Assembly: GCA_002839435.1 (NCBI GenBank)
Contig: PGYA01000007.1
Coordinates: 14,756-78,755 of the forward strand
Length of the DNA stretch: 64,000 nt
DNA from: Candidatus Riflebacteria bacterium HGW-Riflebacteria-2
Lineage (GTDB): Bacteria; Muiribacteriota; Ozemobacteria; Ozemobacterales; Ozemobacteraceae
Direction of reading: 5' to 3'
Program-made: the position numbers and the translations under genes
In this document: in pieces, positions 19,578 through 61,676 of the stretch
How the letters are laid out: each line of letters starts with the position of its first letter
Position numbering within the stretch: the stretch's first letter is position 1
The notes under the pieces: generated by a model
Databases searched by the model: none
What the model saw: only the letters and a program-made list of their open reading frames with translations
What the model was told of the DNA's origin: nothing

Positions 19578-20789
19578 ATGACACAGAAATGGCTGATCCT
19601 GGTGAGCATACTGCTTTTCACTGCTTTTGCTCCAGTTTATGGGCAGAGCGGCAGTTATCTCGACAGCATCTACAGCGCAGACGGCCAGGGCACCTCAGCC
19701 ATAGCTGACGAACCCGAAACCCGATATGTAGACGACAGCGATAATCCTCCCGAAGTCGTTGACGTCCCGGAACCAACTGGTGACCCGGCACAACAGAAAG
19801 CCCTCGAACGCCTGCAGAACATCATCAATCAGATCATGCGTATAATTGGCGGTAAAATGTGCGGCGCCAGAATTGTCGTGGTGGTAATTCCCTGCGAAAA
19901 AATAGTGCCAAAGCCCAAGCCCCCGGTAACCAGCACATCGACTTCTACTGCTACCTCGACCTCGACTGCGACCTCTACCGGCACGCAGACCTCTACCAGC
20001 ACAACCACTTCGACAAGCACGCAGACCTCGACGAGCACATCGACTTCGACCGCCACCTCTACTGGCACGCAAACCTCTACCAGCACAGCGACTTCGACCG
20101 GAACTTCAACGGCGACGGCGACGGCCACTTCCACCAGCACCGGCACCAGCACGGCAACAGGCAAAGAAGCAGTACGTGCCGCTATCCGGCAAAAATACGG
20201 CATAAATGCCGCCGATGGCCAGAATCAGACCTGGAGCGAAAATCAGCTGCGGGCAGCTGACGAAGCACTTGCTTCCTTACCATCGTTCTTCCGCAAGTGC
20301 ACCGATACAGTCTATCGTGACGGCCCGCCATACGACTCGAGAATACCACCCAGCGCCGCGGCCTATGTTATAGTGCCTCAGCACAAAGTTCATATGCTCG
20401 ATCTCAGCGCCCAGATGACACAGGGCGCCTACAATTCGCTGGTAGCGGCCTATGGACGCGCACCAACCACCGAAGAGCAGATGGCCTATCTCAAGCATAA
20501 TTTCAAACGCACTCTGGTGCATGAGATGACGCACTGTTTCCAGAATACCTACCCACAGGTCATGCAGAACTGGAGCAGACAATTCTGGCCGGGTGGCCGC
20601 CTCGTCGGACAGTGCCCAACCGGTTATGGTCGCACTCAGCCGGTTGAAGACATGTCAGAATCGGTAGCCACCTACTGGACCGGCGGCTCGATCAAAAATG
20701 GCGTATTCGTTTCAAGAAGCGGTGCCACCATGGATCTCGAACGCTACAACTTCATCAAGCAATACATCATGGATGGCAAGGAATACTGA
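19578..20789 (+). CDS. secreted HExxH zinc-metallopeptidase-like protein with a Thr/Ser-rich linker
   Basis: RBS GGGGGAGG. Signal peptide. A ~75-aa (T/S/A/G)n linker. The C-terminal domain has LVHEMTHCF (HExxH) and a downstream EDMSES motif with a candidate third Zn-ligand Glu. Confidence 0.55.
   Translation: MTQKWLILVSILLFTAFAPVYGQSGSYLDSIYSADGQGTSAIADEPETRYVDDSDNPPEVVDVPEPTGDPAQQKALERLQNIINQIMRIIGGKMCGARIVVVVIPCEKIVPKPKPPVTSTSTSTATSTSTATSTGTQTSTSTTTSTSTQTSTSTSTSTATSTGTQTSTSTATSTGTSTATATATSTSTGTSTATGKEAVRAAIRQKYGINAADGQNQTWSENQLRAADEALASLPSFFRKCTDTVYRDGPPYDSRIPPSAAAYVIVPQHKVHMLDLSAQMTQGAYNSLVAAYGRAPTTEEQMAYLKHNFKRTLVHEMTHCFQNTYPQVMQNWSRQFWPGGRLVGQCPTGYGRTQPVEDMSESVATYWTGGSIKNGVFVSRSGATMDLERYNFIKQYIMDGKEY
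19927..20160. repeat. degenerate tandem repeat of ACN/TCN codons encoding the Thr/Ser linker
   Basis: Repeated units such as acctcgac / acctctac / acttcgac are visible in the sequence. Confidence 0.7.
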
Positions 20790-34624: not shown

Positions 34625-35053
34625 ATGCAGACACAGATACATCCATTCAGCAACGCCGACCGGCAGTGGTTGGCACGCAGCCTTGAGCGCGGTCGCGCGA
34701 TATGTACACACTTCAAGCTTCTGGAAACCAGCCGCGATGCTGCGGCGCTCGATCAGGCCTTTCTGCTCTGGGCCAGGTCGCCAGCCGGTGCTGGCCAATT
34801 CAGCGCCGATGAAATTGCCGACGGGCTCGGAAGTCTTTTTGGCGAACTGCTGCAGCGTCAGTTTAACTTCAGCTGGTGCCAGATCGAAGACCAGCATGGA
34901 CGTGAAATCGCTCTGCTCGAAGAAACTACTGGCAGCATCGTCATGCCGGTCAACGCGGTGCACAAACGCATCGAACCGGAACTACAGAAACAGCCATTTT
35001 TCGCGCCGATGTGGCAGATGATCGCCGCCCATCTTGAGAAAAAAGAAAACTGA
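34625..35053 (+). CDS. hypothetical protein (142 aa)
   Basis: ORF with protein-like composition. It overlaps alternative-frame ORFs, so the call is weak. Confidence 0.3.
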   Translation: MQTQIHPFSNADRQWLARSLERGRAICTHFKLLETSRDAAALDQAFLLWARSPAGAGQFSADEIADGLGSLFGELLQRQFNFSWCQIEDQHGREIALLEETTGSIVMPVNAVHKRIEPELQKQPFFAPMWQMIAAHLEKKEN

Positions 35054-35296
35054 AGAGTATCGCACAAAGACGCAGAGACACGAAAAAAGCCTTAAGACAG
35101 AAGAGTCTCACGCAGAGACGCTGAGGCGCAGGCAAAAGACAAAACCGAAGAACCGCGCACTAAGGCACGGAAACCCAAAGAAGACTTCAGTATGAGAGCA
35201 GAAGGCCCTCACGCAGAGGCCTGAGACCCTGAGGCCAGAAATATTAGAAAACTAATCTTTATTGCAAAACTAATCTATTTTGGTTATATTAGTAAT

Positions 35297-35554
35297 ATGA
35301 AAACCCTTAATGTTAGACTTGATGATTGGACACATAAAAACCTCAAGGCTCTTGCAGCTTTGAAAGAAACAACCATTGCGGAATTACTGAAAATGCTGGT
35401 CGGCAAAGAAATCGAAGAAAACCCTCAAGAGTGCGAACTTTGCCGCAAATTTGGGCATGAACCGAACGAAACTACCAGAAAAGCAATGGCTGAAAAAGGT
35501 GGCAAATCATTCAAGTCGATAAAAGCGCTCATGGAAGACCTGCAGAGTGATTGA
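35297..35554 (+). CDS. type II antitoxin (ribbon-helix-helix, DinJ/RelB-like)
   Basis: N-terminus MKTLNVRLDDWTHKNLKALAA has an RHH beta-strand/helix pattern. It overlaps the downstream YafQ-like toxin gene. Confidence 0.55.
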   Translation: MKTLNVRLDDWTHKNLKALAALKETTIAELLKMLVGKEIEENPQECELCRKFGHEPNETTRKAMAEKGGKSFKSIKALMEDLQSD

Positions 35555-35819
35555 CAAAATCCTTCGTAAAACCCAGTTTAAGAAAGACTTCAAGCGCATC
35601 ATCAAGCAGGGGAAAAATCCCCAGGAAATTTCAAAATTACTGTCCATGCTCATTGAAGAAAAGCCAATCCCGGAAAAGTACAAAGACCATCCTCTTATTG
35701 GTGATTACAGCGGTTATCGGGAACTCCACATAGCACCAGACTGGCTTCTGGTTTACAAAATTGAAGATAATACGCTGACCCTTGCAAGAACAGGTTCTCA
35801 CTCAGAACTTTTTGGCTGA
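35547..35819 (+). CDS. yafQ: type II toxin, YafQ/RelE family mRNA interferase
   Basis: KDFKRIIKQGKNPQEISKLLSMLIE...DHPLIGDYSGYRELHIAPDWLLVYKIEDNTLTLARTGSHSELF matches the YafQ consensus. Confidence 0.8.
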   Translation: MIDKILRKTQFKKDFKRIIKQGKNPQEISKLLSMLIEEKPIPEKYKDHPLIGDYSGYRELHIAPDWLLVYKIEDNTLTLARTGSHSELFG

Positions 35820-36036
35820 TTTTAGAAGAGCCGCGCACAAAGACACGGAGACACAAAGAAAGCCTTTATTTTTTAGAGTTGCAGTCAAATAATTGCCGCC
35901 GGCTTTGTGACTTTGTGGCTCTGTGCGAGAAGAAAAGTCTCACGCTGAGCTGCTGAGGCGCAGGTTTTGCCTTTTTGTTGAAAAACGGGTATTATTATAC
36001 ATATAATCGTATTCGAAATTACAGGAGGCCAATCTT

Positions 36037-36264
36037 ATGGAACGACCAAGAGTTACTTTTACGATCGACAGGAACATCCTGCTCGAGCTCGACAGTATTG
36101 CCAAAGAATTGGGCCAGAAGAAGAGCCACATTGTAGAACAGGCGCTGGAACTTTACTTTGATACTGTTGATACGATGATCGCTGACCGTAGGCTTGACCG
36201 GCTGGCCAGCGGCAAAGATAAAACTATTCCGGCTGAAGACGTCTGGAAGGAACTCGACCTGTAA
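36037..36264 (+). CDS. relB: type II antitoxin (RHH, RelB/DinJ family)
   Basis: RBS CAGGAGG. RVTFTIDRNILLELDSIAKELGQKKSHIVEQALELYF is an RHH fold. Its stop codon overlaps the toxin start. Confidence 0.7.
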   Translation: MERPRVTFTIDRNILLELDSIAKELGQKKSHIVEQALELYFDTVDTMIADRRLDRLASGKDKTIPAEDVWKELDL

Positions 36265-36527
36265 TGTACCGACTGGAATTCCTGCCGGGTGCTGTTAAAG
36301 ATTTGAAAAAGCTGGATTTTGTCGTTCAAAAAATGATCAAAAACAAGCTTGAGATTCTTGCAGACAACCCTGGACAGCTGAAAAACGACATTAAAGCTCT
36401 CAAAGGAAACCATACCGGCAAATACAGATTGCGGGTCAGAGATTATCGCGTGATATTTCAGAGGCGAGATGATGTTCTGATAATTCTGATTGTCGGCATC
36501 GGGCATCGAAAAAGCGTGTACAAATGA
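36264..36527 (+). CDS. relE: type II toxin, RelE/ParE family
   Basis: YRLEFLPGAVKDLKKLD...KYRLRVRDYRVIFQRRDDVLIILIVGIGHRKSVYK matches the RelE consensus (RVGDYRIIY...IGHRKDVY). Confidence 0.8.
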   Translation: MYRLEFLPGAVKDLKKLDFVVQKMIKNKLEILADNPGQLKNDIKALKGNHTGKYRLRVRDYRVIFQRRDDVLIILIVGIGHRKSVYK

Positions 36528-36663
36528 CGATCATAACCATCATTCCGCACCCATAATGTTTTTTCGAGACAGAAGAGACTCGCACGAAGACACAGAGATA
36601 CTAAGAAGATTTTGAGCTGCTCAGCAGCAGCCCACACAAGACAAGCAATCATGACCTGAAATT

Positions 36664-36752
36664 AATCTGCGCCTATCTGTGTAATCACCCGGGCGCTTCC
36701 ATCCTGATGCGCCCAAGTATCACCCACATCCTGTGGGCGACGGCGGATACTG
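36664..36752. repeat. composite MITE-like repeat, copy A (AATCTGCG...ATCACCCGGGCGCTTCCATCCTGATGCGCCCAAGTATCACCCACATCCTGTGGGCGAC.GCGGAT)
   Basis: Near-identical to 47746-47830. Related copies lie at 39587 and 50054. Confidence 0.7.
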
Positions 36753-36785
36753 TCTTTCTCTTAAAAGTCGTATCGGGATCGAAAT

Positions 36786-36832
36786 CGAAAACCAAAACCA
36801 AAACCAAAACCAATACCAATACCGATACCAAT
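36786..36832. repeat. microsatellite (AAACC)4(AATACC)2-like
   Basis: Readable directly from the sequence. Confidence 0.7.
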
Positions 36833-36944
36833 TAGAAGATAAGACATAGGTCTGGATTAGTGGCGGGGATTTTATTGTAATTGCATGTAGACGGAAAAAC
36901 TTTTATCATCGAGATTCAGGAATACGGGCAACCGGTATTTTGCC

Positions 36945-39550: not shown

Positions 39551-39578
39551 GATTACGATTACGAGCACGAGCACGAAT
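39551..39578. repeat. short tandem repeat (GATTAC)2(GAGCAC)2
   Basis: Same module as at 61590-61676. Confidence 0.6.
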
Positions 39579-39586
39579 TAATATAC

Positions 39587-39681: not shown

Positions 39682-39846
39682 ATTTGTTTGTCAAAAAATT
39701 TTGCTCTAGTGTAAAAAGTATTTTCGAGAATTAACTACAACCCATATCAGCTACAGTGTATAATATAAGAGAGACAGCGAAAACACAGCCGGATTCTGGC
39801 ATGGTTGTTGCGACATAAAAGCTGGTTGGGCGAGAAGGGGTTGCGT

Positions 39847-42800
39847 ATGTACCGGATATTTCTTTATCTGAGGCGCCGCGGTTTTACGCTGGCCGAAATT
39901 CTGGTGGCGACGGTAATCGCCGGATACTGCATCATGCCGATAGTTGGCAGCATGCAGGGCGGAATCAGACATACCGAAAACTTCAATCACCGCGAAAAAC
40001 TGCGCCTGCTCGCCCGGTCGCGCCTCAATAAAGAACTTGCAGCTGGCGCTTTCGACCATTCCGCAGTTAACTCAGCCCCGGCCTACCATTATGTTTTCAG
40101 GCACCCTGTCAGCGCAGACTATATTTCCTTTGACACTGGAATGACCACCGACAATGCCAGCTTCCCTGACCTGATCACCCCTTCGGGAATCGGAATCGAT
40201 GATCTGCTGTACTCATACAGAGTCAATGTTTCGGTCAGAGAAAATGTAACCATTGCGACAACATCTTCAAGTATTGATCCCAATATGCTAAAGGGTCCAC
40301 GCGGCCTCAAAGCAGTTGTAGTTAATGCCGAACTGCTCGACGGCCCCTATGTTATAGCTACTGATTCGATAAGCTACTTTTCACTGCTGACAGTGCCGAG
40401 TTTCGGCGACCAGTTCATCTGGATTTCCAACTCGAGCATGGTGCGAATTCTGGCCGTAGATGCCAGTACCCGCTCTATTGCTGAAACATTCCAGCTACCC
40501 TACGATACGAGCAAAGCCTTCGACAAAGCCGAACAGGACCCTTTTCGACCATGGAACATCGACCTGCACCCCAGTCGTCGATTAATTGGCGTTCAGTCAA
40601 GACAAAAGATAAGGCTGCTCAACATAGACAAATCGCACTCCTCCTATCAGCAAACTTCCGGATTTGTCGATGTTGCCAGCCATCTTGGTACCGACCCGGA
40701 TCCAGCCAAAAACATTTATGCCGACGCAAAAGCTGACGCAGCCAAAGCCGAAGAAGATCGCGGCATCGTTTTTCGACCAGACGGCAAGTATTTTTTCGTC
40801 AGCAGTCATAGTGACAAATCTTTATACGTCTACAAAATCGATGTTGCCACTTTCACCGATCCGGTCTGGTGGTCACAGGCAGCAGCGTCTGTTGCTCTGG
40901 CCAAACGTTTTGGCCTGAAAGCTGCTGAAGAAGGCGATTCTGATACAGAACACGATAAATTCACCGATATGATCGCCGGCAACGATGGCTATCTCTACCT
41001 CTCCATAAAAGACAAGAAAAACATCATCAGATTTCCCATGTATCCAAACTCTTTCGCCAGCGGCTGGACTTATGAATACGTACTTAAACCAACCGTCGAC
41101 AAAACGGTAAACTCGGTCTGGACTTCAAAAGATGGCAAATATGTGTATATACTCGATGATGAGTACAGGGTCGCCCAGTTCAAATCACACCCATTTGGCA
41201 AAATAGGATACGCCACATTATTCTCAGATGAAAAAATGCGTGATTTCAAGCTTTCTCAGGACTCAAGATATCTTATGGTAACAGATGTCAAAAGTGCGTC
41301 AAACAAGGGTGGTTTGTGGATCAAGAAAATCAATGAAATCAACTTTGCCAGCAATCCCACAATCGCCGCAGTGGATATGAGCAAAGTATATCCTGGTTAT
41401 GCGCTGAAATCTGACCTCTGCGTTCTTTCTCCGACTGGTTATGAAGTTCTATTTTCGCATAAAGACAAGCCTGAGCTGTATTTTGCCGGCATCGCCAGTG
41501 CAGCGAATAATGATTACACATCAAGTCTGCCCGCAGGCCAGATACTGGTTTACGACGGCACCGGCAAACCCTGCGCCGACATCGTGACGCGTGTGCCCGA
41601 GCACATGCTGGTAGGAACAAGTGACAGCAGAATCAAATTCTTCGACCTGCACACTTTCAAATTCGACGAAGACAGAGAGATAACTGGTCTGCGCGGAGTA
41701 CCGAGAACCATCGGGGTAAGCCCGCAGGGCACCAGATTCAAGGTCGGTTATGACGATGTCGTAAGCGGCCTCGATGCCTATAACATGATAGATTCCTCCA
41801 ACATTTCGGTTAATGAACTTACAGGAAACAGCAGGATAGTTTCTTATGCCGCCGACGATGAAACAGTGCGCCATGCCAGCGGTGTTGCAACATATTCAGA
41901 TAACTTTTATGCCACTCTGGAAGTAGATGGCTCAGCTACCCCTAACGGCTACTGGTTAAGAGACGCTCCCATCGGCAGTTTTGGCGACAACAACATCGAT
42001 GCAGCCTGGGTTCCACAGGACATGAAAGCCATGCCGAAAGGCGGCTTTCTCATGCTTTACAGAAAGAGCGATGGTTCCGCCATGCTCGACTGGGTCGGCA
42101 AAATCAAATGGGGCGCCAGCAAAGGCAAATACCAGCGCTTCGCCCGCTGGATAAGTCCATCCGCACCGTCCACCCTTCCCACATCACCAGAGCCAGGAAA
42201 CCCCGGAAATGTAGACACATCGGTTGGGTGTATTCAATTGCTCCAGGCAAGCAATTTCCCAGTTGGCACGACAATAACCCATGTCACTTACACTACGGGT
42301 CCCTTTGCCGGCACAAGATATTTTACTCCAGTGATAGTAGAAATAAATGGTGGAGTAAAAACAATAAAAGACTATGCAACATCGATTTCATCAACCCAGA
42401 ACCTTACTGATATTACGTCCGCAATCTCATGGCAGGTCAATGGAGGTCTGATTCAAACGTCCAATTATTATGTCGGCTTCTGGTTTGGACAGATCGGAGG
42501 CAGCGCTGGACAGGGCTTATTCGATCATGCCAATACAGGCGGTTCTTATGGATCAGACTACGTTAACGCTGGCCCAACAGCCATAACCTCGGCACAAATT
42601 GTTGGTGGCAACCATGTAATAACTTCTGGACCTAACGATACCAACAGGCAATACCCGGTTAAATTCACCGGGACTTTACCAGTAACCAGTTCTTTCCCGC
42701 CACGCTATGCACAGAATATCGCGATCAGCCAAGACGAAGGTTTCCTGGCCATTGAAGCTTCCGGAACTCCGCATGTGGTCTATCTTTATGACTTCGCCAC

Positions 42801-45711
42801 CAACAATTTCGGTCACGAAACGCAGCTGCCCGGTTTGATCATGGATAACCGGAATACCGGCACCGATTTTAATGTGGCGGTTCCAGCCGGCTCCCGCTTT
42901 ACCGGAGGTGGAATCAAATTGAGAGAAACGTTCACCGCCAACCACGCCTGGGCATATTTAAAAACTGAGCCGGTGAATTATAACAACGCCACCACTGACG
43001 CCAAACGTGTTTTTGGCTATTTTCAGCCAAAAGGTACGGTTGATAAGTTTTATCTGATCAGAGAGGATGTAGCCAGACTCTTTGTCGATAACTCACCGCC
43101 CAATGAATTGCTTAAAATCTGGTCTCTGGCTACCACACCATACGGGCCCGGTGCAAGACAGATTCTTGCCAGCACAAGCGTATTCATACAGGCTGATCAC
43201 GGTACTGACGGCGTGGGCAATGGAGGCATAGCCCCAATGTATACCACGAATGCTGCAGTATCAACAATAACTCAACCATCGGTGTCAGGAAGTAAATACG
43301 GCACAACGGCGAACTGGCAACACATAACAGCCTCTGAGACCAGACCGCTCAATTTTCAGCCGATTTTGCTGCGCTCTTATCCGTTAAGCGGGTGTAACAC
43401 GGTTCATGATACCGCGCTGGCATTTTCGCGCGATCTCGCCAACCCGATACTGTTTCAGCTCGACCCCGGCCAGGACGACATCTGGGCGTTAAAACCCGGT
43501 GCCTCATTCACCCGAATCGATATTGGCGGGACTTTCGAAGTGTCTGACAAACAGTTTGTTGTCAGTCCCGATGGACAGAAGCTGATTTTTGCCGAAGACA
43601 CAGGCTCTAACCGAATCTTTGTAACCAATATCGGCAATCCCGACAGCTTTGCTTTTGATGGTACCCCTGTGACGCAGTCTTCTATTTCTCCGGCAAGTTT
43701 TGGCAGCCTGATAACTGCAGTCGGCTGTAGTGCTCCGCCGAAAGCGCTCGGCGTCATGCCGTTCAATTCTTACAAATCAACCTCGCGTCTCGGTAAATAC
43801 GAGCAGGTGGCTACTCTGCCAAACCTTATTTATGGCAACAACAACGCGACTCTGGCAAATGGTGCCATCTACATAATGGGCGGCGCAATTAGCGAGGGGG
43901 CAGCGCCATTAAACAAAATATACAAATTTGAACCAATGGCAACGCCGGCAACCGTTTCAACGCAAATAGCAACTCTGACTCAGACAACCAAACTCAATTC
44001 AGTTGTTGCTTACGACAACAAAATATATAGCTTCAACGGCGCCAAAAACGCCGTTGTGGGCGATGTTACCAGCTGGGTTCAGCGCTTCGACCCCGCCACC
44101 GACCAGGTAATTTCTTCATTCGATCCAGTTGCCGGAACACCGACAGAAATTCAGGTCTCGTTTAATCAAGTTAGTTTGCCATCCCCTACCACGGTTACCG
44201 ATTCTGGCGACATAAGCGGATCTGCTGGTCCAGGTTCTCAAGCATTTGATGGCAGTATTGCAATTGGTAGTGCTTGGGCAACAAATTCCAACAGCCAGTA
44301 TCTTGAATATTATGCAGGAAATACAAGTTTGTCATTTGTAGTTAATAAAATATGGGTTAATAATTCTGTTACCGATACTGATGGAGGAACACATGACTAT
44401 TCCTTTTTTGGTTATGATGGTTTATCGTGGATTCCTCTCCTTACTCACACGATTCCAGAAGCTTCTACAAACTATAGCCAAAACTTCAGTAATTCTAGCG
44501 CTTACCAAGCATATCGGTTTCAAACGACTTCAAGATGTGGCAGCTTTGCAAGCTACTACGGTGTACGTGAAATCAAATTTTATTTATCTGGTGTAATTAA
44601 AATACCTGCTGTGGCATTGACTTCCAACTCCGGGCCATCGCCGTATACTGCTTATCAAAGTAGTACGAATAGTGGAAACGACGGTTACAAAGCTTTTGAT
44701 TCTGGAATAACAACTACTTGGTGGGAGGCTGGCAACAACTCAAATGAATGGGTCGGGATTTACACAGGAAATCTCAGTGGTGAAGTTGTAAAATATGTGA
44801 GAATTCTTTGCAACGAATCGGCTGGAAGACTTAATAATTTCTGGATAGAGGGAGCTTATAACAACACTTTTTCATCCTCAGTAATTATACCATTTTCAGA
44901 TGGAGCTGCTGTTGCAGCCCATCAAAACACCAATGCCAGCTATGTTTATACATTGAATAATATCATTCCATATACTTATTATAGACTATATTGTCAATCT
45001 ACTCATGATGGTAACAATCCAAGGATATACAATGTTGAGTTTTATACTGAATCTGGAGGATTAATTTCTGCTGGCGAACCCATCATGACCAAAACCATTA
45101 CCGACGCGCGTGGTTCTATCGCAGTATCGAGCAACGCAGCCTGCCAGACACCATACGGAATCGTCATCGCCGGCGGTTATACGGGTGCGGCAACGACCAC
45201 CGCCATAGTTTACTGGCCACATGCGCTCGATGAATATACCGATGCAACCAACCATTCATTTGGCATTTCGCGCTCTCTGCCACCTCTGCCAACCAGAATG
45301 ATGATGCATTCTCTGGTCTGGCACAAGGGAAAACTTTATCGCATAGGCGGAAGGCCAGACCCATCAAGCACCGCCACCAATATTCACATTTTTGACTTTG
45401 ACTCCAACAGCTGGTCAGCTGACATTCTCTTTACTAACACCGCATATTTTTCCACCAATGCAACTCTTGCTTTACAGAAGTATTCAGCCGCGGCCTGTTC
45501 TTTTGGCGATGAGATATTTGTGTTTGGTGGTTATAACAGCAGCGGCGACCTACAAAGCACTGCATTCGCATGGAACCCTGAAAGTACCGTGGTCAGGCAA
45601 CTTGGTGACATGCCGGTAGCAAAAGCCGGCCTGACCGCCGTTCCCTGTGGCTCATCGATCTACCTCATCGGCGGCACCAGCGACGCATCCGTTTACAAGT
45701 TCACCCCATGA
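39847..45711 (+). CDS. giant (~1955 aa) type IV pilin-like protein: prepilin N-terminus fused to beta-propeller, discoidin-like and Kelch-like domains
   Basis: RBS GAGAAGGGG then ATG 39847. N-terminus MYRIFLYLRRRGFTLAEILVATVIAGYCIMPIV is a textbook prepilin cleavage/methylation motif. Lactonase-type YVYK/YVTN repeats follow. Two F5/8-C-like segments sit around aa 1400-1650. C-terminal Kelch-like blades (KLYRIGG..., EIFVFGGYNS..., SIYLIGGTS). Confidence 0.7.
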   Translation: MYRIFLYLRRRGFTLAEILVATVIAGYCIMPIVGSMQGGIRHTENFNHREKLRLLARSRLNKELAAGAFDHSAVNSAPAYHYVFRHPVSADYISFDTGMTTDNASFPDLITPSGIGIDDLLYSYRVNVSVRENVTIATTSSSIDPNMLKGPRGLKAVVVNAELLDGPYVIATDSISYFSLLTVPSFGDQFIWISNSSMVRILAVDASTRSIAETFQLPYDTSKAFDKAEQDPFRPWNIDLHPSRRLIGVQSRQKIRLLNIDKSHSSYQQTSGFVDVASHLGTDPDPAKNIYADAKADAAKAEEDRGIVFRPDGKYFFVSSHSDKSLYVYKIDVATFTDPVWWSQAAASVALAKRFGLKAAEEGDSDTEHDKFTDMIAGNDGYLYLSIKDKKNIIRFPMYPNSFASGWTYEYVLKPTVDKTVNSVWTSKDGKYVYILDDEYRVAQFKSHPFGKIGYATLFSDEKMRDFKLSQDSRYLMVTDVKSASNKGGLWIKKINEINFASNPTIAAVDMSKVYPGYALKSDLCVLSPTGYEVLFSHKDKPELYFAGIASAANNDYTSSLPAGQILVYDGTGKPCADIVTRVPEHMLVGTSDSRIKFFDLHTFKFDEDREITGLRGVPRTIGVSPQGTRFKVGYDDVVSGLDAYNMIDSSNISVNELTGNSRIVSYAADDETVRHASGVATYSDNFYATLEVDGSATPNGYWLRDAPIGSFGDNNIDAAWVPQDMKAMPKGGFLMLYRKSDGSAMLDWVGKIKWGASKGKYQRFARWISPSAPSTLPTSPEPGNPGNVDTSVGCIQLLQASNFPVGTTITHVTYTTGPFAGTRYFTPVIVEINGGVKTIKDYATSISSTQNLTDITSAISWQVNGGLIQTSNYYVGFWFGQIGGSAGQGLFDHANTGGSYGSDYVNAGPTAITSAQIVGGNHVITSGPNDTNRQYPVKFTGTLPVTSSFPPRYAQNIAISQDEGFLAIEASGTPHVVYLYDFATNNFGHETQLPGLIMDNRNTGTDFNVAVPAGSRFTGGGIKLRETFTANHAWAYLKTEPVNYNNATTDAKRVFGYFQPKGTVDKFYLIREDVARLFVDNSPPNELLKIWSLATTPYGPGARQILASTSVFIQADHGTDGVGNGGIAPMYTTNAAVSTITQPSVSGSKYGTTANWQHITASETRPLNFQPILLRSYPLSGCNTVHDTALAFSRDLANPILFQLDPGQDDIWALKPGASFTRIDIGGTFEVSDKQFVVSPDGQKLIFAEDTGSNRIFVTNIGNPDSFAFDGTPVTQSSISPASFGSLITAVGCSAPPKALGVMPFNSYKSTSRLGKYEQVATLPNLIYGNNNATLANGAIYIMGGAISEGAAPLNKIYKFEPMATPATVSTQIATLTQTTKLNSVVAYDNKIYSFNGAKNAVVGDVTSWVQRFDPATDQVISSFDPVAGTPTEIQVSFNQVSLPSPTTVTDSGDISGSAGPGSQAFDGSIAIGSAWATNSNSQYLEYYAGNTSLSFVVNKIWVNNSVTDTDGGTHDYSFFGYDGLSWIPLLTHTIPEASTNYSQNFSNSSAYQAYRFQTTSRCGSFASYYGVREIKFYLSGVIKIPAVALTSNSGPSPYTAYQSSTNSGNDGYKAFDSGITTTWWEAGNNSNEWVGIYTGNLSGEVVKYVRILCNESAGRLNNFWIEGAYNNTFSSSVIIPFSDGAAVAAHQNTNASYVYTLNNIIPYTYYRLYCQSTHDGNNPRIYNVEFYTESGGLISAGEPIMTKTITDARGSIAVSSNAACQTPYGIVIAGGYTGAATTTAIVYWPHALDEYTDATNHSFGISRSLPPLPTRMMMHSLVWHKGKLYRIGGRPDPSSTATNIHIFDFDSNSWSADILFTNTAYFSTNATLALQKYSAAACSFGDEIFVFGGYNSSGDLQSTAFAWNPESTVVRQLGDMPVAKAGLTAVPCGSSIYLIGGTSDASVYKFTP

Positions 45712-47745: not shown

Positions 47746-47913
47746 AAATCTGCGTTAATCGGCGGCATCACCCGGGCGCTTCCATCCTGATGCGCCCAAG
47801 TATCACCCACATCCTGTGGGCGACTGCGGATGTTCTCCTTCTTCTCCGGGTTTCTGCTCTTCTGCCCAAAGATTTCCGGCTGCCTTCTTTGCGGCTTTGT
47901 GTCTCTGTGCGAG
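47746..47913. repeat. composite MITE-like repeat, copy C (longest, ~170 bp)
   Basis: Contains all three modules in order: AATCTGCG..AATCGGCGGC, ATCACCCGGGCGCTTCCATCC...GCGGATGTTCTCC, and CTTTGCGGCTTTGTGTCTCTGTGCGAG. Confidence 0.7.
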
Positions 47914-47951
47914 GTATTGTATAATAGAGAAAATGCGGGGCGGAGGTTTTT

Positions 47952-48578
47952 ATGGCGGGATCGACAAAGAAAAAGCAGCAGCGGTATTCTTACGCAGATT
48001 ATCTGACCTGGGATGACGACAATCGTTACGAGATAATCGACGGTGAAGTATTCGATATGACTTCGCCGAGTTTGCTTCACCAGAGCATAAGTGGTGAATT
48101 GTTCAGACAAATGGCAAACTATTTTGAAGATAAGCCATGTAAAGTATTCGCAGCACCTCTAGACGTGCTGCTGGCAAAGAATGCCAGCAGATCGGACGAA
48201 GTATTTACCGTGGTGCAGCCTGATATCATGGTCGTCTGCGACCCGAAAAAACTCGAGGAACGCGGCATAGTCGGCGCGCCCGACCTGGTGGTAGAGATTA
48301 TCTCGCCGTCAACTTCATCGAAAGACAACATTATCAAGCGCCGGGTCTACGAGCAGGCCGGCGTCAGGGAATTCTGGCTGATAAGCCCGGTCGAGCGTCT
48401 GATCAGGGTGAACAAACTCGGCAAAGACGGCCGCTTCGAGCGCGAAGAAATTTATGACGACACGGCAGAGATCGAGATTGCGCAGTTTGCCGGTTTGAGC
48501 GTCGACTGCCGCCGGCTGTTTCCACCCCTGCCGAAAGTTAAACGGGTAAAATCGCCACCACCACCAAAGTATGGGTGA
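47952..48578 (+). CDS. Uma2-family (DUF820) putative endonuclease
   Basis: YSYADYLTWDDDNRYEIIDGEVFDMTSPSLLHQ...VVQPDIMVV...GAPDLVVEIISPST matches the Uma2 consensus. Confidence 0.8.
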   Translation: MAGSTKKKQQRYSYADYLTWDDDNRYEIIDGEVFDMTSPSLLHQSISGELFRQMANYFEDKPCKVFAAPLDVLLAKNASRSDEVFTVVQPDIMVVCDPKKLEERGIVGAPDLVVEIISPSTSSKDNIIKRRVYEQAGVREFWLISPVERLIRVNKLGKDGRFEREEIYDDTAEIEIAQFAGLSVDCRRLFPPLPKVKRVKSPPPPKYG

Positions 48579-48673
48579 GATTCTCTTGACGCGGTCTGTT
48601 GTACATGCGATATAATAAAGATTGAAAAACGCGATGCTGTTCTCGTTGAAACTTTGCAAGCGGAGATGTGTTT

Positions 48674-48970
48674 ATGAGCCCGGAAGTATCTGAGGTCATC
48701 AGGATTCTTTCAAGCCTGAAAGCCGAAATTAAAGCGCGATTCAAGGCTGATCTCAAAGGAGTTTTCGGTTCTTTCGCCCGCTCTGAAGCAACCCCGGACA
48801 GCGATATCGACATTCTCGTCGATTTTCTGCCATCTGCGAACCTTTTCGATATGGCCGAGCTTACACTTTATTTAGAAGACAAGCTGCATCGCAACATCGA
48901 CCTGGTGCCAGAAAGTGGCATCAGAACGGAATTACGGCAAACAATTCTGCAAGAGGCAATCATGCTGTGA
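48674..48970 (+). CDS. mntA: minimal nucleotidyltransferase (MntA-type antitoxin)
   Basis: [27 protein letters not shown] is the NTase GS-x9-DxD motif. Its stop overlaps the HepT start. Confidence 0.75.
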
Positions 48971-49308
48971 GAAATTTTGTTCTATACCTCGAGGACATTC
49001 TTGCAGCTATTCTTGCCATTGAAGAATTCGTTAAGAACATGGATCTGCAAGGGTTCAAACTTGACGACAAGACCTCGAGCGCGGTGATTCGCAAGTTCGA
49101 AATCATTGGCGAAGCAGCCAAAATGGTGCCCGTAGAAGTTCAGGAGAAATACCCAGAAGTTCCATGGCGAGCCATGGCCAGAATGTGCGACAAACTCATT
49201 CACTTTTACTTTGGGGTGCAACATGAGCTGGTCTGGCACACCATAGCTGATTCTCTGCCAGCCCTGAAGCCACATATCGAAAAGGCGATATCTGAACTGA
49301 AGAATTAA
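48967..49308 (+). CDS. hepT: HepT-like (DUF86) toxin
   Basis: About 113 aa with a DUF86-like helical pattern. It contains R-x4-HxY-like KLIHFYF. The pairing with the upstream NTase supports the call. Confidence 0.7.
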
Positions 49309-49430
49309 TATTATCAGATTGCGATTGCGCCGTTTGCTGGTTTGAGCATCGACTGCCGCCGGCTGTTTCCACCCCTGCCAAAGCCGAAAAAAGTAAAATC
49401 GCCGCCAGCGCCGAAGTATGGGTGATGGTA

Positions 49431-49754
49431 TCAGCTCATTGCCAGCTGGGTTCGAATAGCCTTTTCGACTTTGATCAGATCGTCTGATGAAATGTTGCTG
49501 AACAGGTTAGCGAGACGGGTTTTGCTGACTGTCGTTATCTGGTCGGCCATGGCCTTTACCTGGCGACCGCCCAGCGTCACATAAGCCTCGCTGGGGTAAA
49601 GTCGGTCGGTGCTGGTAGTCAGCGGTATGACCTGAACACGATTGAGAAAACGATTTGAAGAATCATTACTGACTATAATTGCCGGGCGGGTCTTTTTTAT
49701 TTCACCGCCAGCCGCCGAAGCAAAATCGACCCACCAGACTTCACCACGGTTCAT
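49431..49754 (-). CDS. mazF: MazF/PemK family toxin
   Basis: GEVWWVDFASAAGGEIKKTRPAIIVSND...VQVIPLTTS matches the PemK/MazF consensus. Confidence 0.8.
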   Translation of the reverse strand: MNRGEVWWVDFASAAGGEIKKTRPAIIVSNDSSNRFLNRVQVIPLTTSTDRLYPSEAYVTLGGRQVKAMADQITTVSKTRLANLFSNISSDDLIKVEKAIRTQLAMS

Positions 49755-49971
49755 CTATGGTTTCTCCAAGGGTTCCTTCGCACCATTCTTCGGCTTCACG
49801 TTCTCTTGCTTCGTCTTTTGCCATTTTTTTGTATTCAGAATCGAGAGAGTTGCCCAGAACATGTGGCCGCAGCAAATCTTCGATAAACTGGCTGATTTTG
49901 CCGCGGCCGATAACCCGGTGCAGCCTTTCGTATACCTGTTCGTCGAGCGTGATAGTCAATTTTTTATGCAT
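49741..49971 (-). CDS. antitoxin (RHH/MazE-like) partner of MazF
   Basis: 76 aa, MHKKLTITLDEQVYERLHRV, with an acidic C-terminus. It overlaps mazF by 14 nt. Confidence 0.6.
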   Translation of the reverse strand: MHKKLTITLDEQVYERLHRVIGRGKISQFIEDLLRPHVLGNSLDSEYKKMAKDEAREREAEEWCEGTLGETIDEPW

Positions 49972-50053
49972 TTACGGATCCCTCAATACGTATTATACAC
50001 GTATATATTGCAACTTGTCAAAACTGACAGCAGCAAATGCTGCCAGTTTCAAA

Positions 50054-50144
50054 AAATCGGCGGCAATCGGCGCAATCTGCGGTTTCTGCTCTTCTGGCCT
50101 AAGTTGGCGGCTGCATTCTTTGCGGCTTTGTGTCTTTGTGCGAG
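50054..50144. repeat. composite MITE-like repeat, copy D (internally deleted)
   Basis: AATCGGCGGCAATCGGCGCAATCTGCGG...CTTTGCGGCTTTGTGTCTTTGTGCGAG. Confidence 0.65.
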
Positions 50145-50169: not shown

Positions 50170-50904
50170 TTACAGGCTGTTGAAGTCTTCGGCGGGCTGG
50201 AAGCCGGCGGCCATAAGAATATCGGCGCCGCGCTCGCGGTCGTCGGCAAGGTTGCCGGTACCAGCACTGTACTGATAAGTTGATGGCGCGGCTTTGGGCA
50301 TGTTCAGTGAGCGCAGCAGATCGTCGATTTCGCGGGGCGGCTCAAATTGAAGCAGATCGCCGGTTTTTTCGAGATAAGTGCGGTCGGCGATGATAAAAGC
50401 GCCAACACCATGATCTTCGGCGGTTTCGGGGCACCAGATGAAAACATAGTCGGCCGGGTCGCCGGCCGGCGAATAGACATAGCTTTCATTCATTATCTGC
50501 AGCTGATGATCAACGATTGAAACGTCGTAGTTATCGTCGGAATCGAGCGTAACCCGCAGTTTTACGCGCATTCTTTCGGGGCGGGGAGCGGCATATTTGA
50601 GGAAAATGCGGTTGATGGTTTCCTGGCGGTCAGGCGGGCATTGCAGAGCAAAGCTGATCTGGCTGGCATAAAGTTGCAGGTGCTCTAAGGCTTTCTGCTG
50701 GCCGGCATCGTTGCGATCGTAGTCGCCAAGCCGGGTAATTTCGCCAAAGATGTTGGAAACCTCAAATGCGTCAACAATATATGCTTTTTCATAACTTATC
50801 AGCCTGATATCGGCCCAGATTTCGAGCAGGTTCTGACTGGCGCTGGCAGAACCGGCCGCCATCGCAAAAAAGCACAGAGTTAAAATTGCCAGAAATCTTG
50901 TCAT
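50170..50904 (-). CDS. secreted protein of unknown function
   Basis: Signal peptide MTRFLAILTLCFFAMAAGSASA. Confidence 0.45.
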   Translation of the reverse strand: MTRFLAILTLCFFAMAAGSASASQNLLEIWADIRLISYEKAYIVDAFEVSNIFGEITRLGDYDRNDAGQQKALEHLQLYASQISFALQCPPDRQETINRIFLKYAAPRPERMRVKLRVTLDSDDNYDVSIVDHQLQIMNESYVYSPAGDPADYVFIWCPETAEDHGVGAFIIADRTYLEKTGDLLQFEPPREIDDLLRSLNMPKAAPSTYQYSAGTGNLADDRERGADILMAAGFQPAEDFNSL

Positions 50905-51173
50905 CGCAGAATCACAAACCTTAATTCACGTAGTAGAATTACAATTGTTTTGTACACAAGAGCATTTAAAAGCAAGTTTTATGCCAGTTGCAGACTGACC
51001 ACTGATAAGCGTTAGCGCTCATTCAGTCTGGAAATGCAGAATATCTGCCAGCTTTATGCCAAAATATCAGCTCCTGTGCTATCGCTATAATAGTCGGAAG
51101 GTGAGTTATGTCAGCTCTATACATGGAATGAAAGTATGGTATTCTGATGCAAATGTTTACAGGAGATTGACTT

Positions 51174-52022
51174 ATGAAGACGTATAAACCGGTGTTTATT
51201 CTGCTGGCCGTTCTGCTGTTTACGAGCAGCAGTGTTATGGCTGAAGTCGATGCTCCGGGCCAGAAACTGCAGCAGAAGGAAATCGACAAGGCAACAGCAC
51301 AATGCCGCGAAATAATCAGACCTTACAGTTCTGAATCAGGATTTCCGGAGATTCTGCCAGAAGGATTACGCGGCAAAGACTGGGAAACGATACGCCGAAA
51401 AGTTGCTGAAGACTGCTTTAAATGTTCGAAAATAATGCTTGATCTGCTTGAAAAAAACAGGCTGCCGATCAAGCTGCGGCTCGGCGCGAAGTATTTTCGC
51501 AAAAGATTCATTATGGGAACCGCTATTTACCCGCACAAAGATGAAAGCGACAAGATTCATGAATTTCAGTGCCGCAGTTTCGCAAGTGACTGTGAAGTCG
51601 GCCTCAACGAAATGCACTACTGGCAGAAAGCCGAACCTGAATCAACCGGTGACGCCCGGTGGTTGAAAACTGCCAGAGATGGTCTTGTCAGGGTTAAGCA
51701 GATGTTGCCGGTATTTCCTGATGAAATAGGCGGCGAAGAAGCCCGAGAATTCTGGCGACAGGCGGCCGAGAGAGCGACACAAGCCGGAAACGAGGCTGGC
51801 ATGACGGCAAGCCGCATCGGCGACTTCAATTCTCCGGCATGGCGCCTTAAATTTGCGATAAAGTATTGCAAGGCTGCTACCAGAGCTGCGGTTTCTGACA
51901 GTCTGCATGCGCGTGAATCTGACCCAGAATACTGGCGACTGGCTGTCATAAAGCTGCAGGAGTCTATCGAACCGCTTGGCAGCGAAATCGATGAACTGCT
52001 CAAATCTCTGTCCAAAAGATAG
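51174..52022 (+). CDS. secreted protein of unknown function
   Basis: RBS AGGAGA. Signal peptide MKTYKPVFILLAVLLFTSSSVMA. Confidence 0.45.
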   Translation: MKTYKPVFILLAVLLFTSSSVMAEVDAPGQKLQQKEIDKATAQCREIIRPYSSESGFPEILPEGLRGKDWETIRRKVAEDCFKCSKIMLDLLEKNRLPIKLRLGAKYFRKRFIMGTAIYPHKDESDKIHEFQCRSFASDCEVGLNEMHYWQKAEPESTGDARWLKTARDGLVRVKQMLPVFPDEIGGEEAREFWRQAAERATQAGNEAGMTASRIGDFNSPAWRLKFAIKYCKAATRAAVSDSLHARESDPEYWRLAVIKLQESIEPLGSEIDELLKSLSKR

Positions 52023-52307
52023 TCTCCAGCGCTGCCGGCCTTTTTGGCCTGCGCTTTGGGAGGTGCCACCAGCTTTACCGGGTCGCTGATAACCTTGAAG
52101 TCGAGATTTGCCAAGGCGCGAGCCGCTACGGCCAGAAACCTTTTCAAGTTGTTCAAAATGGCTATCATGCATAAGGAATGGTGCAAAGCAATCGAATTTT
52201 CAGATTTTTCGGCGAGATTTCACGGCATTACGTTTTTTCTGTCTCTGGTGTATGCTTATAAGATATACAAGTGACTTTGAGCATTAAGCAAATAATCGGA
52301 GGCTTTT

Positions 52308-53876
52308 ATGGCCAGGCATAAGGTTATCGGCGTAGTTTTTATTCTCGCAGTCTTTATGGCTTCGCTCATGCCGGTTAGAGCTGAGCAGTTGATGAATCGC
52401 ATCGACCGATTTTTTGTATTTGGCAGTAATCTGGCCTGGTTTAATAACAATTATGGCGCTGATATCGGCACCAATCATGCTGAAGGTGGCTGGTCACCGA
52501 CCTTTTCTCAGGAACACTGCGAAAAGGTGTTTGCCAATCTCGAAAAGATGGGGTGCCCGGTGATAAGAATCTGGGCGTTTGAAAGACAGGAAGGTCTTAC
52601 TTTTACGGCTGACCTGACTTCTGACCCGGCTTATCCTTATCATGAAGTTACCGGCCTCGACGACAAATTCATGGAGAATTGCCGCTTTTTGATGGATTGC
52701 GCGGACAGACACCATGTAAAAGTTTACTGGTCTCTGCTTAACCATCTGATTCGCGAAGAACAGGATGGCCGACACATGCGCATCATTACCGACAAAAAGG
52801 TGCGTAAAAGCTATATCAACCATGCGGCACTGCCATTTTTGCAGGAATTTGCGCGCCACCCGGCTTTTTTTGCCGTCGATATCATGAACGAAGCTGATGG
52901 CGCGATTGGCGGCATAGATTTTCTCAGCGGTGGCATGAATCCCAAACTTGGCTGCACCTGGAAACAGATGCGGGTATTTATCAAGGAATGTGCAAATGCT
53001 TTTCATCAGGCAATTCCCGGCATAAAAGTCACCTGCAGCAGTGGCTGGCATGAATATAAAAACGTTAAGGCCGGCCGTTTTTCAGGGCTTGGCCTGGATT
53101 TTTATGACTGGCATTCTTATAAAGACGAGCCTGATCTGCCGCATGCCCGCGAACTTAAGCTTGATAAGCCGGTTATCATTGGTGAATGCGGGCCAAAAAC
53201 TCAGGAACCGGACGAGCACTATTCTCTGCAGGGTAAAAACTGGAACGCCTATCTGGCGCAGGCCCGCAAAGGCTATGCTGGGCTGTTGACCTGGTCTTAT
53301 GGCAATCAGGGCGCTGCCAGTAACTTCACCATGGTTAACAAAGACCATAGCTGGCGCAGCGGAGCAAAATTCATTTATCGGGCAACGCGGGGCGAACTGA
53401 TTCCAGACGCTGGGCCGCTGTTGCTAACTGATGCGGAAGCAAAGGCTCTGAAAACCCTTAACAGCGCCCTGAAAATTGTAATCGACCTGAAAGACCATTC
53501 GAACCCGAGATCACTGAATACTGCACAGAAGCGGCTGGTATGGCTCGGCAACGAAACCGCAAAATATTATCCCTATGTAAATCCAAGATACGCTGTTTTC
53601 AGCTTTATCAGAGCCCTGAATGAGATTTCCAATGCCGGTGAATGGGAACTGCGCAACCGCTCAGAAGGCTTTGCCGAAAGAACTGCTGCGTTACAGAAAA
53701 TCGGCGCGGCTCTGCTCGATCAGGAGGGCACCATCAAGTCGACCAGGCTGGCGCAGGCAACCGCACGGCTGGCCGATTTCCTTAAAAGAGACCCGGCCGC
53801 AAAAAACACGGCAACCCCGTCGCCATTTGATGTAGATAGTGCAGGAAGCGGCGCCGCTGTGCCCGAGGTAGAATAA
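52308..53876 (+). CDS. secreted glycoside hydrolase family 5 (mannanase/cellulase-like)
   Basis: Signal peptide. VIRIWAF, DIMNE (candidate acid/base NE) and IIGECG (candidate nucleophile Glu) are in GH5 order. Confidence 0.65.
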   Translation: MARHKVIGVVFILAVFMASLMPVRAEQLMNRIDRFFVFGSNLAWFNNNYGADIGTNHAEGGWSPTFSQEHCEKVFANLEKMGCPVIRIWAFERQEGLTFTADLTSDPAYPYHEVTGLDDKFMENCRFLMDCADRHHVKVYWSLLNHLIREEQDGRHMRIITDKKVRKSYINHAALPFLQEFARHPAFFAVDIMNEADGAIGGIDFLSGGMNPKLGCTWKQMRVFIKECANAFHQAIPGIKVTCSSGWHEYKNVKAGRFSGLGLDFYDWHSYKDEPDLPHARELKLDKPVIIGECGPKTQEPDEHYSLQGKNWNAYLAQARKGYAGLLTWSYGNQGAASNFTMVNKDHSWRSGAKFIYRATRGELIPDAGPLLLTDAEAKALKTLNSALKIVIDLKDHSNPRSLNTAQKRLVWLGNETAKYYPYVNPRYAVFSFIRALNEISNAGEWELRNRSEGFAERTAALQKIGAALLDQEGTIKSTRLAQATARLADFLKRDPAAKNTATPSPFDVDSAGSGAAVPEVE

Positions 53877-61507: not shown

Positions 61508-61589
61508 CGGGAAGCCCCCTGTTGTCACTATTCTACTGACGCAATATATCAGATAGTTTCGACAAGGTAAAGAATCTTTTCTGCCCAAA

Positions 61590-61676
61590 TCGTGCTCGTT
61601 CGCGTAATCGTAATCGGAAAACGAGAAATAGATTAATAGGACGAAGACGATTACGAGCACGATTACGAGCACGAAA
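61590..61676. repeat. short tandem repeats (CGATTACGAGCAC units in both orientations)
   Basis: gtaatcgtaatcg ... gattacgagcacgattacgagcac. Confidence 0.7.

Follow-up and report, generated by a model that had tools for sequence, protein, structure and literature searches.

A Uma2 gene, two toxin-antitoxin modules and a Uma2 relic in Candidatus Riflebacteria: a probable short version of a hypervariable array

A cluster of small genes was analyzed in the genome of Candidatus Riflebacteria bacterium HGW-Riflebacteria-2. The window, the whole stretch of DNA under analysis, is 64,000 nucleotides (nt) long (assembly GCA_002839435.1, contig PGYA01000007.1, positions 14,756 to 78,755 of the forward strand), and all positions below are those of the window unless a comparison locus is named. 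The islet at 47746-50144 lies between a prepilin-type operon and adenylate/guanylate-cyclase genes. It contains a Uma2 (DUF820) gene, an MntA-HepT pair and a convergent MazF-type pair, which are toxin-antitoxin (TA) modules, a fragment related to the 3′ end of Uma2, and two copies, C and D, of a repeat (Table 1). Genes and families were assigned from open reading frames with Pfam, NCBIfam, PADLOC and PDB-sequence searches. The comparison loci, numbered with the prefix L, are metagenome contigs throughout. L009-L018 and L058 belong to a sister species. Three metagenome assemblies contain the complete islet at 100% identity: JGI 3300038336 (contig Ga0246098_00099), ENA ERZ27239240 and ERZ27239244. 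A contig of a Logan assembly is also identical over the part it covers.

Table 1. Features of the islet, with window positions.
Feature	Position	Strand	Description
Repeat copy C	47746-47913	+	D-type Uma2 leader (AATCNGCG repeats, X core 47877-47913) with inserted sequence
55-nt double-hairpin element	47770-47824; second copy 36687-36741	+	Insertion in copy C
Uma2 promoter-like element and ribosome-binding site (GTATTGTATAATAG...GGAGG)	47914-47951	+	From an alignment of 20 unit upstream regions
Uma2 (DUF820)	47952-48578	+	208 aa; Pfam PF05685, E=4.6e-33; prepilin-proximal copy of the array
mntA-hepT promoter region (TTGACG...GATATAAT)	48579-48673	+	Begins right after the Uma2 stop codon; read from the sequence
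MntA-type nucleotidyltransferase antitoxin	48674-48970	+	98 aa; Pfam NTP_transf_2, 2e-12; Polbeta, 5.7e-11
HepT (HEPN) RNase toxin gene	48967-49308	+	113 aa; Pfam HepT-like, 3.8e-24
Uma2 3′-end relic	49316-49425	+	Unit-profile positions 592-710, to the stop codon; no usable start; nhmmer E=7e-31
PemK/MazF endoribonuclease toxin	49431-49754	-	107 aa; Pfam PemK_toxin, 2.5e-23
MazF antitoxin partner, ribbon-helix-helix (RHH)/DUF6364-like	49741-49971	-	76 aa; overlaps mazF upstream by 14 nt; weak matches
mazEF promoter TTGACA-18-TATAAT (12/12 matches) and terminator-like hairpin	49992-50045	-	Promoter/terminator scan
Repeat copy D	50054-50144	+	Short D-type leader with no Uma2 behind; same place in the sister species

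The original prediction, made from the letters of the DNA, had named a standalone Uma2 gene and a nucleotidyltransferase/HepT pair, and both were confirmed. The Uma2 protein matches PF05685 with 114.5 bits (cut-off 27) over residues 15-184 of 208, and belongs to this family. It is predicted to be a PD-(D/E)XK-fold nuclease-like protein. The matching PDB sequences are 9y1l (E=9e-24) and 6okh. The acidic motifs qPD and aPDlvvEi align with the same residues of these two structures, which have no described activity. The PADLOC profile PDC-S03, one of the candidate phage-defence systems (PDC), also matches Uma2 (E=1.7e-55). The protein is 95-98% identical to the copies that follow the prepilin operon in L020, L021 and L022. 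Among the Uma2 paralogues of the arrays described below, residues ~38-83 (48063-48200) are the most variable, with 64-76% pairwise nucleotide identity against 85-93% elsewhere. This would be expected if specificity resides there.

The mntA-hepT promoter region shares its -35 and -10 parts with the VapBC cassettes of L021, L023 and L025. The GS...DxD motif is visible in the MntA translation. As in type VII antitoxins, mntA lies upstream of hepT, with a 4-nt overlap (GTGA, 48967-48970). In type VII systems, the MntA nucleotidyltransferase neutralizes the HepT RNase by AMPylating a conserved tyrosine. The NCBIfam models MntA_antitoxin (45 bits, 8e-12) and HepT_toxin (20.5 bits) both scored under their cut-offs of 60, and the pair appears to be related, not equivalent, to the characterized systems. 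The PADLOC candidate PDC-S09 matches MntA, and the phmmer search of HepT against PDB sequences returned no match.

HepT has probably lost part or all of its function. Codon 74 (49186-49188) is TGC, which places Cys at the position of the catalytic Arg of the HEPN motif Rx4H (R74C). The same residue is found in the three assemblies. Position 74 is Arg in the orthologues of L022, L020 and L024 and in 23 of 27 library representatives. His79 and Tyr81 (H-x-Y) are retained, and the Rx4H motif is incomplete through Cys74. The loss of the catalytic Arg suggests that HepT is probably inactive or weakened. In L020 and L024, hepT carries an internal deletion, with MntA still 97% identical in protein sequence. 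Decay of hepT beside a nearly unchanged mntA is the usual order of TA decay, toxin first.

A convergent MazEF pair had also been predicted. The toxin and the orientation stand: MazF matches PF02452 with 82.8 bits (cut-off 23.1), which supports the toxin fold, and mazF is convergent with the Uma2 relic, their stop codons being 5 nt apart. The MazE assignment is less firm. The 76-aa partner shows only sub-threshold matches, to DUF6364 (0.0039), VAPB_antitox (0.0066) and NCBIfam MazE (8.7e-5, under the cut-off). An RHH-like antitoxin that accompanies a MazF-family toxin is probably a better description than an AbrB-type MazE; the gene name mazE is kept below for convenience. Just upstream of the mazEF promoter, a terminator-like hairpin ends the transcription unit of g244, the neighboring gene. 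In a plasmid collection, only distant homologues of mazEF were found (65-69% nucleotide identity), on proteobacterial plasmids, where the partner is annotated as "addiction module antitoxin". The islet has no match in a phage collection.

The two repeat copies flank the segment as predicted. The sequences 47877-47913 and 50108-50144 are 95% identical over 37 nt (family D7), and C and D can be aligned over about 90 nt. In this alignment, C equals D plus about 75 nt, which are the 55-nt element and a 20-nt piece. A 29-nt core of the 55-nt element is identical in both of its copies (the second at 36686-36714). The DNA fold of the element has a z of -3.97, and none of 200 shuffled sequences folds as well. 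The element is missing from D and from the leaders of L020, L009 and L023. Possibly, it is a very small element of a mobile or structured kind.

The X core (CTTTGTGNCTYTGTGCGAG) has 8 copies in the window, versus 0.09 expected by chance. All of them are within 35-50 kb, in both orientations, and border TA cassettes or operons. In most copies of the related arrays, Uma2 is preceded by a leader, CTTCTTTGCGGCTTTGTGTCTCTGTGCGAG-GTATTGTATAATAG-...-GGAGG, which is composed of the X core of C/D, the promoter and the ribosome-binding site; the GTATTGTATAATAG...GGAGG part is conserved before most of these copies. The X-core part of the C/D repeat is a shared Uma2 leader and a dispersed intergenic repeat, not a cassette end. 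With no Uma2 behind it, copy D is an orphan leader. In L008, a relative whose g244 protein is 86% identical, the contig stops inside repeat D. A second TA islet is observed at 35040-36860. Two pairs make it up: at 35297-35819, a YafQ toxin and its DUF6290/ParD-like antitoxin, and at 36037-36527, a ParE toxin and its RHH antitoxin. The same repeat modules X, Y and Z border both pairs and lie in both orientations.

A near-duplicate of the Uma2 3′ end at 49320-49400 had been proposed as a recombination scar. The alignment with the Uma2 3′ end showed that the similarity is real, with slightly wider limits. The sequences 49316-49425 and 48469-48578 are 84.5% identical (about 85%) over 110 nt with no gaps, and both end with TGA (family D6). 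The relic translates in the Uma2 frame as ...IAIAPFAGLSIDCRRLFPPLPKPKKVKSPPAPKYG, followed by the stop. The stop codon of hepT (TAA) is in frame with the relic (49306-49428), so that HepT would gain 39 residues at its end by read-through. This agreement of frames is probably a coincidence.

The nearest tail to the relic is that of the mazF-adjacent relic of L023 (91.8%), versus 84.5% for the tail of the window Uma2, 740 nt upstream, which argues against a local duplication. In the sister species, homology at 90% starts in g244, spans D, mazE and mazF without a break, and reaches precisely to 49316. There, Uma2 goes on about 460 nt beyond the relic as a frameshifted pseudogene, whose 5′ end is cut by an IS4-type transposase gene. 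This continuation into a longer Uma2 shows the relic to be the counterpart of an older Uma2 that faced mazF. The transposase gene of this insertion sequence (IS), of the DDE type and 525 aa long, is at 11949-13526 of L009 and is also found in L010-L013 and L016, within the mazF-adjacent Uma2. In L009, L023 and L058, the relic likewise directly adjoins mazEF, and its Uma2 part extends further than in the window. L059 was considered as an IS-free allele and rejected, as it carries the same IS with an internal deletion. No overlap was found between the prepilin-side and the IS/mazEF-side contigs of the sister species. From these comparisons, the 110-nt fragment is the remnant of a second, mazF-adjacent Uma2 paralogue. 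The proposed scar is thus retained as a recombination or deletion scar, with another Uma2 paralogue as its source.

The scan of metagenomes with the Uma2 protein revealed the same prepilin operon in relatives, followed by two to four co-oriented Uma2 paralogues. The operon genes encode proteins of 204, 170 and 221 aa, of which the first two match the Pfam N_methyl motif. In the window, the operon is headed by the gene of a ~1960-aa protein (39805-45711) that has a methylation motif of the prepilin type at its N-terminus and Kelch repeats at its C-terminus. The cassettes between the Uma2 copies include the TA modules MntA-HepT, MazFE, PIN/VapBC, two kinds of HicAB, and HigBA. DUF4160/DUF2442, RHH with a ParE-like toxin, a Schlafen-AlbA_2 ATPase and an AAA_14/DUF4143 ATPase are also found there. 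Eight cassette types begin about 0-3 nt from the Uma2 stop codon.

The content of the arrays differs among relatives. In L021 and L025, VapBC follows the first Uma2, in the place of MntA-HepT. In L020, the gene of a 495-aa ATPase separates the first Uma2 from MntA-HepT. L022 has leader-Uma2-MntA-HepT after the prepilin operon, without mazEF or g244. The sister species has the relic-mazF-mazE-D-g244 block, which adjoins the IS-disrupted longer Uma2 pseudogene, without adjacent MntA-HepT. The g244 protein of L009-L018 is 84% identical to that of the window. The comparison with related genomes found relatives with other cassette content. It did not find an empty-site allele; the scan of a genome collection with g244 returned one relative only, with a contig ending inside the repeat.

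In L022 and L028, the array runs straight into the cyclase gene, which suggests that the variable region of the window may extend to about 53.9 kb. The genes g244 (50170-50904, 244 aa), g282 and g522, together at 50170-53876, have no significant match in Pfam, NCBIfam or PADLOC. They are missing or elsewhere in relatives; L019 has g244 at another locus. These three genes may also be part of the variable region. Distant Uma2 homologues in other metagenomes (about 45% identity) are single, and their neighbors, forty of which were inspected, are mostly housekeeping genes. Therefore, the Uma2-TA array is specific to the Riflebacteria lineage of the window.

A search of the related arrays with a Uma2-unit profile detected at least seven 3′ relics of independent origin, all in the orientation of the intact copies. 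Their starts lie at profile positions 246, 494, 508, 554, 592, 628, 654 and 658. The relics reach the end at the stop codon, with one exception that ends about 13 nt short (L020-L022, L024). When the preceding cassette is co-oriented, the relic starts -4 to +23 nt from the end of its last gene. When it is inverted (L023, L027), the relic comes after the upstream promoter region of the cassette. Only one relic retains a 5′ end, an internal deletion in L034. Fragments of toxin genes are observed as well. In L021 (8327-8345), 15-17 nt of a mazF 3′ end lie behind a Uma2 copy. In L022 (6330-6372; also in L020, L021 and L024), a 3′-end piece of a ParE-like toxin gene, about 45 nt long, is fused to a 35-nt Uma2 tail relic, before the next leader.

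The modules of the islet have different closest relatives and different degrees of identity. The block from the X core of C through Uma2, mntA and hepT (47884-49308) is 94.7% identical to L022 at the nucleotide level. Within this block, mntA is 99.0% and its promoter region 98.9% identical; the values are 92.7% for Uma2 and 93.5% for hepT. Compared with L009, mazF is 97.2% and mazE 98.2% identical, g244 86.1%, copy D 85.9%, the relic 83.6% and the cyclase genes 78.7%. The prepilin operon shows ~75% identity to L020-L022. These identity steps point to recent exchange of single modules among related genomes. On its left, the block in common with L022 breaks off at 47884, inside the X core of copy C; directly upstream of this position, there is no alignment to L022. 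The repeat therefore probably provides portable homology at which exchange can take place. No anomaly of GC content or composition was found in the islet, which is consistent with exchange among close relatives.

It is likely that the segment represents, in this genome, a short and partly decayed form of a hypervariable array of Uma2 genes and cassettes, located between the prepilin-type operon and the cyclase genes. It consists of three independent modules: leader C with Uma2, mntA-hepT, and the convergent mazEF-type pair with a perfect sigma-70 promoter. The ancestral order would have been prepilin operon, leader, first Uma2, mntA-hepT, probably another leader, second Uma2, mazFE and D. The leader and the first ~520 nt of the second Uma2, which once faced mazF, would then have been lost through a deletion or an illegitimate join that connects a point 7 nt past the hepT stop codon with profile position 592 of this gene. 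Turnover of the array would proceed by three routes: exchange between related genomes via Uma2/leader homology, deletions, and IS insertion. The TA pairs may stabilize the array.

Three points weigh against this history. The intact ancestral state (hepT, leader, full Uma2, mazFE) was found in no relative, and the single-deletion step is thus a reconstruction. Many of the compared contigs break at repeats, so that complete arrays are available for few relatives only. Finally, no piece of the 85-130 nt leader is kept before any relic, and such sharp left ends are not predicted by random deletion. Selection on TA modules accounts for the survival of the right ends of relics, because the promoter of the next cassette begins at the stop codon, but not for the sharp left ends. 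Site-directed breakage at the boundary of cassette and leader, or one-sided homologous recombination anchored in Uma2, is possible for these ends.

The order of full Uma2, cassette and 3′ relic recurs in relatives, with differing cassettes and differing relic starts. The relics sit right behind the cassette ends and nearly all reach the stop codon. Short microhomologies are seen at junctions, for example between hepT GAAGAATTAA of L022 and Uma2 GAAAGTTAA. These features would also arise if a piece composed of a Uma2 tail and mntA-hepT had entered a resident Uma2, by one-sided homologous recombination with an illegitimate join or by Campbell-type integration of a small circle. The insertion would have restored a full Uma2 upstream and pushed the old 3′ end downstream. 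Such an event is unlikely to have formed the islet. The window Uma2 matches the prepilin-proximal Uma2 of L020, L021 and L022 (92-94% nucleotide identity), not the mazF-adjacent paralogue (82.7%, L009), and therefore the hybrid gene predicted by insertion is not seen. The window can be accounted for just as well by one deletion in an ancestor resembling L022.

An integrase-free system of cassette capture is also conceivable, with the Uma2 genes as its scaffold. New TA or defence cassettes would enter the array at the stop codon of Uma2, breaks would occur at the boundary of cassette and leader, and repair would be anchored in Uma2 homology. The breaks would possibly be made by the Uma2 nuclease. 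If true, this would explain both the cassettes starting at Uma2 tails and the relics starting at cassette ends. It is regarded as improbable.

Integron-like recombination, in which the Uma2 3′ tail (...GTATGGGTGA) would be a site-specific site for insertion and excision of cassettes, is very improbable. The start of the eight cassette types next to the Uma2 stop codon would fit it, and so would two units, the Schlafen ATPase with the relic starting at 654 and VapBC with the relic starting at 494, which occur in differing array contexts. However, the DNA structure of the tail equals that of shuffled controls (z = +0.2 and +0.6), and copy D is likewise no better; neither resembles an attC site. 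The tail is no more conserved than the remaining gene, and the tails of relics are decaying at their ends. There is no integrase among the genes within ±10 kb of the islet. Rfam returned no match in the whole window at the gathering threshold, nor in the islet at E≤1.

The original prediction had viewed the 2.1-kb segment between C and D as a cassette delimited by repeats. The direct repeats, the identity of the islet in three assemblies and the L022 breakpoint in the X core of C would suit one mobile unit of 2.4 kb, moved or lost by recombination between C and D. This is hardly credible and appears largely refuted by the comparative loci, as mazEF, D and the relic occur without adjacent MntA-HepT in the sister species, Uma2-MntA-HepT occurs without mazEF and g244 in L022, the modules differ in identity to different relatives, the repeat is a general Uma2 leader dispersed between genes, the islet has no transposase or recombinase and C/D no target-site duplication, as a composite transposon or a miniature inverted-repeat transposable element would require, and the whole unit was found nowhere else in the metagenome, plasmid and phage scans. 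The window has no tRNA or tmRNA gene as a possible integration site.

Other repeats were observed in the window. A tandem repeat with a 9-nt period is at 4785-5108 (about 24 overlapping register copies), and an ACC/TCG-rich repeat with an 18-nt period is at 19929-20162. Both are presumably coding low-complexity sequences. A GATTACGA...GAGCACGA repeat occurs at 39551-39579, 61587-61615 and 61637-61675, as direct and inverted copies 22 kb apart.

By its gene content, this is a routine TA/defence islet, and the three gene modules all belong to described families. The alternation with Uma2 and the relics are a local peculiarity. The locus is a worked example, in which the comparison with relatives tells mobile parts from relics and identifies the flanking repeats as shared leaders. 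The arrays of this Riflebacteria lineage offer a natural system for the role of Uma2, as the PDC-S03 candidate, and for its tie to TA modules. The regularity with which the Uma2 relics are placed is a hint of directed recombination, by a process as yet undescribed.

Several known systems resemble parts of the locus. Like the HepT-MntA system of the Shewanella oneidensis type, the window pair has a nucleotidyltransferase gene upstream of and overlapping a HEPN gene, the tyrosine of H-x-Y, and both Pfam families. It differs in scoring under the NCBIfam equivalog cut-offs and in having Cys for the Arg of Rx4H. Repetitive extragenic palindromic (REP) sequences and bacterial interspersed mosaic elements (BIMEs) are dispersed intergenic repeats. 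The X, Y and Z modules are likewise short and intergenic, lie in both orientations at gene or cassette borders, and break assemblies. In contrast to REP/BIME, the X core lacks palindromic symmetry and is a fixed part of the leader in the array, and no transposase of the RAYT type was seen.

DUF820 proteins have been termed "TA associated" in Synechocystis (PMC4963859), and DUF820/Uma2 is expanded in some cyanobacteria (PMC9403480). In a survey of the PD-(D/E)XK superfamily, DUF820 proteins are predicted endonucleases showing signs of transfer (PMC3424549). The cyanobacterial genes are of the same family, multi-copy and adjoining TA modules, as here. In the present case, the phylum is another one, and the copies form a tandem array with a common leader at one conserved locus.

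Sedentary chromosomal integrons, such as the Vibrio superintegron, carry TA cassettes with their own promoters, which are thought to stabilize the array. In their arrays, as in those described here, many short cassettes follow one another in the same orientation, with a repeated sequence between them. Here, no integrase is nearby, the repeat unit is a protein-coding gene with its leader instead of a folded attC, and the relics at junctions decay. Chromosomal TA/defence islands at hypervariable hot spots are packed in the same way, with several small TA modules of unrelated families and a nuclease-like candidate for defence between conserved flanks. Their content likewise varies among close relatives, with pseudogenes, IS insertion and mosaic identity implying exchange. 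The locus differs from such islands in that one paralogous gene, Uma2 with its common leader, punctuates the island and 3′ relics mark many of its junctions.

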